Assembly: GCA_045604805.1 (NCBI GenBank) | Contig: JAZUOT010000030.1 | Span: 27,291-91,290, forward strand | From: Acutalibacteraceae bacterium | GTDB lineage: Bacteria > Bacillota > Clostridia > Oscillospirales > Acutalibacteraceae | Length of the DNA stretch: 64,000 nt | Direction: 5' to 3' | Part shown: in pieces, positions 36,667-36,675 of the stretch | How the letters are laid out: the number at the start of each line of letters is the position of its first letter | Numbering within the stretch: position 1 is the first letter of the stretch | Translations under genes and position numbers: made by a program | The notes under the pieces: model-generated | Databases searched by the model: none | What the model was told of the DNA's origin: nothing | What the model saw: only the letters and a program-made list of their open reading frames with translations

Positions 36667-36675
36667 CCCCCCCCC
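36667..36675 (-). repeat. G9 homopolymer (C9 on the plus strand) at the ribosome-binding site
   Basis: The gene strand reads CATCGGGGGGGGGTAGATTTTATG. No comparable G or C run was noticed elsewhere in the window by eye. Confidence 0.95.

Follow-up and report, generated by a model that had tools for sequence, protein, structure and literature searches.

A G9 homopolymer at the ribosome-binding site of a double-glycine-leader, PARG-like gene: a predicted slippage-prone Shine-Dalgarno element in a poly-G-rich Clostridia genome

Results and discussion

Overall organization of the locus

The window, by which we mean the whole 64-kb stretch of DNA analysed here (C30:27291–91290), comes from a metagenome-assembled genome of 1.33 Mb in 56 contigs with a GC content of 35.5%. 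Its minus strand encodes a 1076-residue protein (N-terminal segment MLDLHKVDWKALQELRDE...LTFSQLDDVAGGGGGG) that begins with a double-glycine export leader and contains a PARG-like macrodomain (Table 1). The sequence ahead of the gene reads aaaaaacatc-GGGGGGGGG-tagatttt-ATG on the gene strand, or in wider context ...tttcgctaaaaaacatc GGGGGGGGG tagatttt ATG TTG GAT..., and the 3' end of the G9 tract is separated from ATG 36658 by 8 nt. The original prediction that a 9-nt G run occupies the ribosome-binding site of a PARG-domain gene is thus correct, with the run at 36667–36675 of the minus strand, 8 nt before the ATG. The run was also said to be the only Shine-Dalgarno (SD)-like element of this start codon, and within 20 nt of the ATG we found no other, nor any further purine-rich element at SD distance.

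Table 1 Features of the G9 locus (window coordinates) and poly-G promoter cassettes found throughout the genome (contig:position)
Feature	Position	Strand	Basis
G9 homopolymer, SD element	36667..36675	-	sequence, rarity, predicted 16S-tail pairing
ATG, true start codon	36656..36658	-	leader-family profile aligns from its M; public gene call of 1076 aa
In-frame TTG upstream, rejected as start	36698..36700	-	no SD within 17 nt upstream; paralogue N-termini give no support
Predicted sigma-70-type promoter: TTGAAA, 18-nt spacer, TG-n-TATTAT (extended -10)	36735..36764	-	10/12 consensus matches
Whole ORF, 1076 aa: leader, acidic linker, unassigned middle region, PARG-like macrodomain, proline-rich tail	33428..36658	-	
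Double-glycine (Nif11/bacteriocin-like) export leader, residues 1–65, ending ...LTFSQLDDVAGG	36464..36658	-	jackhmmer
(GGT)5GGG triplet repeat, Gly6 at the leader cleavage site	36452..36469	-	sequence
Divergent bacterial-type PARG-like macrodomain, residues ~670–908	33935..34651	-	PF10021, TIGR02452, 5ZDE
PARG motif QGGFVLTGAISQEE	34508-34549	-	
PARG motif GCGAFGN	33977-33997	-	
Promoter-spacer cassettes, class (a), elsewhere in the genome	C26:3080, C49:27994, C50:3830, C31:156, C40:13, C40:12001, C47:15076, C15:4034, C26:40743, C19:47717, C56:487, C41:9966, C6:3093		

The leader belongs to a large family. When all stop-to-stop ORFs of the genome were searched with an iterated profile, this leader of ~65 residues was found at the N-terminus of ~70 ORFs ranging from 100 to 3,700 aa, among them, in the window, 8675–19384 and 33428–36658. 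The family consensus is ...ECRD..EA...L...G......L..IK.......LS..QL..VAGG, and in its terminal part, LSxxQLxxVAGG, residues L54, L59, V62, G64, and G65 are invariant or nearly so. Single members of the family have weak Pfam similarity to Bacteriocin_IIc, Nif11, and ComC, and the leader of the 1076-aa ORF has both the GG motif and the conserved hydrophobic pattern that precedes it. The genome encodes one C39-peptidase ABC exporter, a 732-aa ORF with PF03412 at C44:24374–24748 (E = 2.5e-39), and the 1076-aa protein is probably exported by such a peptidase-containing ABC transporter (PCAT). As in PCAT substrates (PMC6959990, PMC7018657), the leader is ~65 aa long, ends in ...QLDDVAGG, and is accompanied by a single C39-peptidase ABC transporter in the genome. 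The cargo here, however, is 1,000 aa long and its paralogues reach 3,700 aa, whereas those substrates are small peptides, and the family differs further in having ~70 members in one 1.33-Mb genome. Elsewhere in the bacterial family, the leader was found in 8 of 150 genomes at E<=1e-6, in small ORFs only (93–198 aa) and in at most nine copies; a search of 400 genomes of the order at E<=1e-8 matched none. At the leader cleavage site, (GGT)5GGG is an in-frame repeat and no frameshift switch; variation in its copy number could alter the linker or the cleavage position.

The hallmarks of bacterial-type PARG are a catalytic GGG-X6-8-QEE signature and a GxGxFGN diphosphate-binding loop. Both have counterparts in the cargo, where the two motifs of Table 1 align with FASAKNPGGGFLGGAQAQEE and GAWGCGVFRN of the D. 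radiodurans PARG 5ZDE (E = 0.0024); Q replaces the first G of the GGG triplet, and we count both motifs as present. The profile scores are lower than the family cut-offs, with 16.9 bits against 23.5 for PF10021 (E = 0.0086) and 34.4 bits against 50 for TIGR02452 (E = 1.6e-8). Only three distant relatives were found among 1.84 billion representative proteins. One of them, P0004, is a bona fide PF10021 protein (1.8e-27). The only sizeable one, P0002, is a 2206-aa protein of a low-GC organism (32% GC) that combines a GG leader of the same type with three PARG-like modules (L168:567–7187, from a Logan SRR22585850 contig). Because the motifs and relatives are present and the PF10021 and TIGR02452 scores fall short of the cut-offs, the label PARG-like is reasonable, yet the domain is a divergent outlier.

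Start codon, promoter, and 5' UTR

The G9 tract had been placed inside an in-frame extension that begins with an ATG at 36700. The extension is in frame at G9 and reads MCNFAKKHRGGVDF-M, but its first codon is TTG. We assign the start to ATG 36658 because the leader-family profile begins at its methionine, the public gene call is 1076 aa long, and TTG 36700 has no SD. On the same grounds (a TTG codon, no SD within 17 nt, and a leader alignment and public call that favour ATG 36658) we rejected the 14-codon longer form from 36700.

On the gene strand, the sequence most like a promoter, a consensus match only, is ~60 nt upstream of G9 (Table 1). This predicted promoter would put the transcription start near 36728 and therefore G9 inside a 5' UTR of ~70 nt, at about +53 to +61. 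Lying between the predicted transcription start and ATG 36658, the tract would be a G-repeat in the mRNA leader, on the sense strand. A gene-strand promoter scan found no usable -35/-10 pair across G9. We specifically considered a promoter that spans G9 and uses TAGATT as its -10, and rejected it; there is no usable -35 at 16–18 nt, and transcription would start after the ATG. Farther upstream, the block TTTCATGCGTTTTGCGTG occurs in identical form at 36784–36801 and 8457–8474 of the window, in each case ~20 nt upstream of a TTGAAA -35, that of the PARG-like gene and that of the glmU operon, and might act as an operator common to both or as a UP-type element.

Folding of the 5' UTR gave no structure above background (z = -0.38), and the predicted accessibility of the SD and the AUG barely changed across G4–G13 variants. 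A hairpin with the G-run in its loop does appear in the minimum-free-energy fold; the same z-score and the insensitivity of accessibility to tract length led us to reject it as a regulatory element. The tract might alternatively be where a C/U-rich small RNA or a protein docks, with tract length setting the sign or strength of control. A precedent is the H. pylori tlpB leader, in which 7–12 Gs repress and at least 14 activate through the small RNA RepG (PMC8295292), and G9 is likewise on the mRNA sense strand, like nearly all tracts of this genome. Against this, an Rfam search of the intergenic region returned no RNA family at E<=1, and terminator hairpins with C-rich loops, such as C43(-)79610 atactcTATCCCCCgggtat followed by T8, are weak and unspecific candidates for a partner. 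We consider a docking site of this kind very improbable. The tlpB repeat is similar to the present one in being a homopolymeric G-repeat of comparable length (6–16) on the sense strand of a 5' UTR, with a gradual output to be expected, but there it is located ahead of a distinct ribosome-binding site and exerts its effect via the C/U-rich loop of a small RNA, whereas here the repeat is itself the SD.

Predicted consequences of a change in tract length

G9 is longer than the threshold for mutability of simple sequence repeats (SSRs), an uninterrupted poly-G/C of at least 7 (PMC6321876), and it is plausibly hypermutable. The original prediction went on to propose two routes by which slippage would switch the gene, and neither is upheld. 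The first was a change in the spacing between the SD and the start codon. As the tract is itself the SD and its 3' Gs pair with the CCUCC core, an insertion or deletion leaves the spacing at 8 nt; the 3' end of the tract stays in place at any length. The second was a shift in the reading frame of the longer form, which is contradicted by the lack of an SD at TTG 36700, by the leader alignment, and by the public 1076-aa call. Since TTG 36700 is not a credible start, a frame shift in the extension is irrelevant. A ±1 change at G9 therefore alters neither the frame of the ORF nor the gap between SD core and ATG, nor any -35/-10 spacing, and the tract is thus neither placed as contingency tracts are nor an on/off switch.

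In a model of the duplex between the SD and the anti-SD, any tract of at least five Gs keeps an intact SD at optimal spacing. The calculated energy is -12.4 kcal/mol for G5, -13.2 for G6, -13.7 for G7, -14.2 for G8, -17.0 for G9, and -17.5 for G10, after which it reaches a plateau; these values refer to a generic Firmicute 16S tail, which may not be that of the host, as the assembly has no 16S gene. A 23S gene is likewise absent, and the only rRNA sequences present are 5S fragments, which lie at contig ends (C37 and C46). In Firmicutes the 3' tail of the 16S rRNA, CCUCCUUUCU, consists of pyrimidines only, and additional Gs would therefore add G-U pairs. On this model it is defensible to expect from a change in G9 length a graded effect or none, rather than on/off behaviour.

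A classical on/off contingency switch that operates through SD spacing, the frame of the 36700 isoform, or both is accordingly improbable in our judgement. It is true that the tract is longer than accepted thresholds (PMC6321876), that the 36700 extension is in frame at G9, and that other genes of this genome do have true switch layouts. But 36700 is a TTG without an SD, the family alignment and public call back ATG 36658, the 3' end of the tract is fixed 8 nt from the ATG, and around the tract there is no pair of promoter hexamers with a workable spacing. The contingency-locus layout that had been proposed is hence supported in part, by the length of the tract, by the switch layouts found genome-wide, and by the clustering of tracts in the leader family, and fails in both of the mechanisms proposed for this gene.

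Poly-G tracts are abundant in the genome and concentrate at leader genes

The original prediction saw no run comparable to G9 elsewhere. This is so in the 64-kb window, in which G9 is the sole G/C run longer than 6, followed in length by three runs of 6; the expected number of such tracts in the window is 0.03, and 2 of 100 dinucleotide-preserving shuffles contained one. It is not so in the genome, which has 41 G/C runs of at least 7, 24 of at least 8, and 16 of at least 9, the longest being 14, against expectations of ~7–12, 1–2.3, and 0.1–0.45, respectively. Nearly all of these tracts read as G in the sense orientation of the neighbouring gene. The 5' zones of leader genes (-150 to +300 of the starts) cover 2.4% of the genome and contain 20 of the 41 runs of at least 7 (binomial P = 5e-22). 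We distinguish four classes of tract: promoter spacers (a), SD sites (b), codons after the GG cleavage site (c), and the early ORF after a Sec signal (d).

Class (a) comprises 13 near-identical promoter cassettes of the form TTGAC(T/A), 4–8 nt, Gn (or G5-T-G5), TATAAT (Table 1). The total spacer length varies from 15 to 20 nt among these near-identical paralogous cassettes, and the tracts include G8, G10, G10, G10, G11, and G14. Most of the cassettes drive double-glycine-leader genes beginning 'MAGKILSKDLGGLSKKEI...', and the G14 cassette drives a family-2 glycosyltransferase (GT2). As putative promoters they have the classical promoter-spacer layout of phase variation, for which N. meningitidis porA is an example (as cited in PMC11898584).

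Class (b) includes the G9 of the window with its 8 nt and ATG, a G11 followed by 6 nt and ATG at C13:20501, a G7 at C43:71499, and two G6 tracts. SDs with at least six Gs are found in 5 of 64 leader genes versus 4 of 958 others, a 20-fold enrichment (Fisher P = 8.6e-5), and the two longest G-run SDs, G9 and G11, are both in the leader family. The sequence GGGGG is an ordinary SD variant of this genome, present in ~46 of the 958 non-leader genes.

The class (c) runs, G7–G8, lie 15–30 codons past the GG cleavage site of leader genes and are all in frame in the assembly. In class (d), poly-G occurs just after the Sec signal peptide in two families. The first, MNKLALKL..., has a G10 in frame at C15:1171, C51:2882, and C53:3719, and a G12 at C28:24343 that leads to a stop, with the body of the protein in the next frame. 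The second, MNKFITKF..., has a G12 in frame at C4:14130 and a G11 out of frame at C7:8093. The flanks of these paralogues are 88–100% identical and their tract lengths differ, which is indirect evidence for variation in repeat number. Upstream of the Sec-family genes we also observed arrays of 12–20 copies of TTAGAGG/TTAGAAG heptamers followed by 4–12 complementary octamers, TCTAACNN, for example at C28:23987–24220 and on C15, C51, and C53. Their copy number varies between paralogues; they are a second repeat system, located just upstream of the SD, and could form a long imperfect hairpin.

On the strength of the excess of tracts, their concentration at leader genes, and the presence of in-frame and out-of-frame paralogues that differ in run length, the genome bears the marks of a slippage-switched gene set. 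Both MutS and MutL are intact in the genome. This led us to reject a loss of mismatch repair as the source of the tracts, and it also means that slippage rates may be modest.

Could the tracts, G9 among them, be miscounted or spurious homopolymers produced by sequencing or assembly? The genome is metagenome-assembled, in 56 contigs, and several tracts are near contig ends (C40:21, C31:164, C53:3719). G9 itself, however, is 27 kb from the nearest end of the window, within a 106-kb contig, has unique flanks, and sits exactly at SD distance; its sister tracts fit functional geometry, with spacers of 16–18 nt and ORFs that stay in frame for as many as 3,700 aa; and an error of one G would leave our reading unchanged. 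An artefact is therefore barely credible.

Comparison with relatives and other genomes

The genus is represented by a single genome, this one, in the genome set that we searched. By its PyrH, whose best relatives share 72–73% identity, the organism belongs to the gut Oscillospirales, alongside metagenome-assembled genomes of Acutalibacteraceae/Ruminococcaceae type. The proteins encoded nearby (DUF378, PyrH, and Frr), looked up by exact match, gave no other strain, and full-length and N-terminal homology searches of 5.8 billion proteins gave no orthologue of the 1076-aa protein. Neither did a search for the cargo in 300 genomes of the bacterial family. A metagenome pattern scan that permitted G5 to G19 returned no second copy of the locus, and a metagenome protein scan returned no orthologue or fragment of the gene.

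P0002 is the only leader-plus-PARG relative that was found and, at 38% identity, is a distant homologue rather than an orthologue. Its SD is a plain aaGGGGtgtttatATG (GGGG), and the G/C runs in 10 kb of that locus are all shorter than 6, so a long run is not conserved as a requirement among leader-PARG genes. The closest leader paralogue within the genome, C15:32132, has G5 followed by acgattt-ATGTTGGATTT. We examined whether the two genes share a 5' cassette and rejected the idea; the similarity is confined to ~25 nt at the SD and ATG and is suggestive but weak.

Most of 100 genomes of the bacterial family have zero to few G9 windows, and we accordingly rejected poly-G as a trait of the lineage. 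The richest of them, G006, has 61 G9 windows inside a repeated intergenic hairpin element, unlike the tracts of the present genome. The element is CCCCCCGCC-n4-GGCGGGGGGGGG, or with its flanks ttttCCCCCCGCC-n4-GGCGGGGGGGGG(9-11)-aagatattatcaa(c/t)taatttgg (for example L061–L077), and it resembles a REP or MITE-like element.

Proposed role of G9 as a slippage-prone Shine-Dalgarno element

We propose that G9 is a hypermutable, expanded form of a GGGGG-type SD whose length would have at most a graded effect on translation, a reading to which we assign a probability of about 0.5. According to this proposal, the tract would serve as a slippage-prone SD in the ~70-nt 5' UTR of a double-glycine-leader, PARG-like gene, having expanded from the GGGGG-type SD that is routine in this genome. 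Each G added, up to ~10, would extend the G-C/G-U pairing into the 16S 3' tail and might gradually change the strength of initiation. The tract is also a member of the genome-wide poly-G set at the 5' ends of secreted-protein genes, many other members of which have the layout of classical on/off switches.

Alternatively, the tract may be neutral, with slippage or gene conversion having lengthened an ordinary GGGGG SD whose length drifts without a measurable effect on expression. G5 SDs are indeed common in the genome, any length of at least five leaves the SD intact at optimal spacing, predicted folding is insensitive to length, and the distant relative P0002 makes do with GGGG while the possibly related 5' end of C15:32132 has G5. 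But long uninterrupted runs decay unless maintained, intact mismatch repair means that the run is no simple product of a repair defect, and SDs with six or more Gs are enriched 20-fold in the leader family (P = 8.6e-5), which includes the longest two, G9 and G11. We regard a purely neutral tract as somewhat unlikely.

The expanded-SD reading can also be carried further, to a system of three tiers, promoter-spacer, SD, and early-ORF, in which poly-G would stochastically diversify ~70 large PCAT-exported leader proteins of a gut Oscillospirales with a reduced genome, and the SD tier would act as a heritable translation rheostat. This extension is speculative, and we think it unlikely. In the open literature that we searched, we found no phase-variable element described in which a homopolymer constitutes the SD.

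Relation to known repeat-based switches

Phase variation driven by SSRs is textbook knowledge for a handful of pathogens and, to our knowledge, little documented in gut Clostridia. G9 joins a known class, that of homopolymeric SSR loci, and invites comparison with the poly-G/C contingency loci of Campylobacter, Neisseria, Haemophilus, and Helicobacter. As in those genomes, the runs reach 7 Gs or more, are many per genome and far above expectation, and concentrate on genes for surface or secreted proteins; the sister tracts of G9 are placed between -35 and -10 or in early codons, and paralogues occur in and out of frame. G9 itself differs from those loci in that it is outside the real ORF and the promoter core and that a ±1 change alters no frame or spacing, and the host differs in being an uncultured Oscillospirales (Clostridia) commensal with intact MutS and MutL. 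PhasomeIt, for its part, defines a slippage-prone tract as at least 7 G/C in an ORF or promoter (PMC6321876).

A further parallel is the 5' UTR of M. tuberculosis espR, in which an indel of a single G in a homopolymer changes translation efficiency and leaves the ORF untouched (PMC11898584). Both are homopolymeric poly-G tracts in a 5' UTR, outside the ORF. The espR effect is ascribed to a refolded UTR in the vicinity of the ribosome-binding site, whereas folding at the present locus is predicted to be insensitive to length. Together with the tlpB leader (PMC8295292), espR sets a precedent for graded control through G-repeats in a 5' UTR.

The case carries a caution, in that a homopolymer beside a start codon need not be an on/off switch. 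It also makes G9 a clean test case for whether a homopolymer that is itself the SD can tune translation heritably. Of greater interest than the single tract is the genome-wide picture, as the dense poly-G set (16 runs of at least 9 in 1.33 Mb) together with a huge family of leader-bearing giant proteins suggests a stochastically varied secretome.

Two further G9 tracts of the genome, C19:7839–7847 and C49:31360–31368, adjoin IS-type transposase genes; downstream of the former is an IS1-like InsA N-terminus, and the latter is next to a transposase-like ORF.
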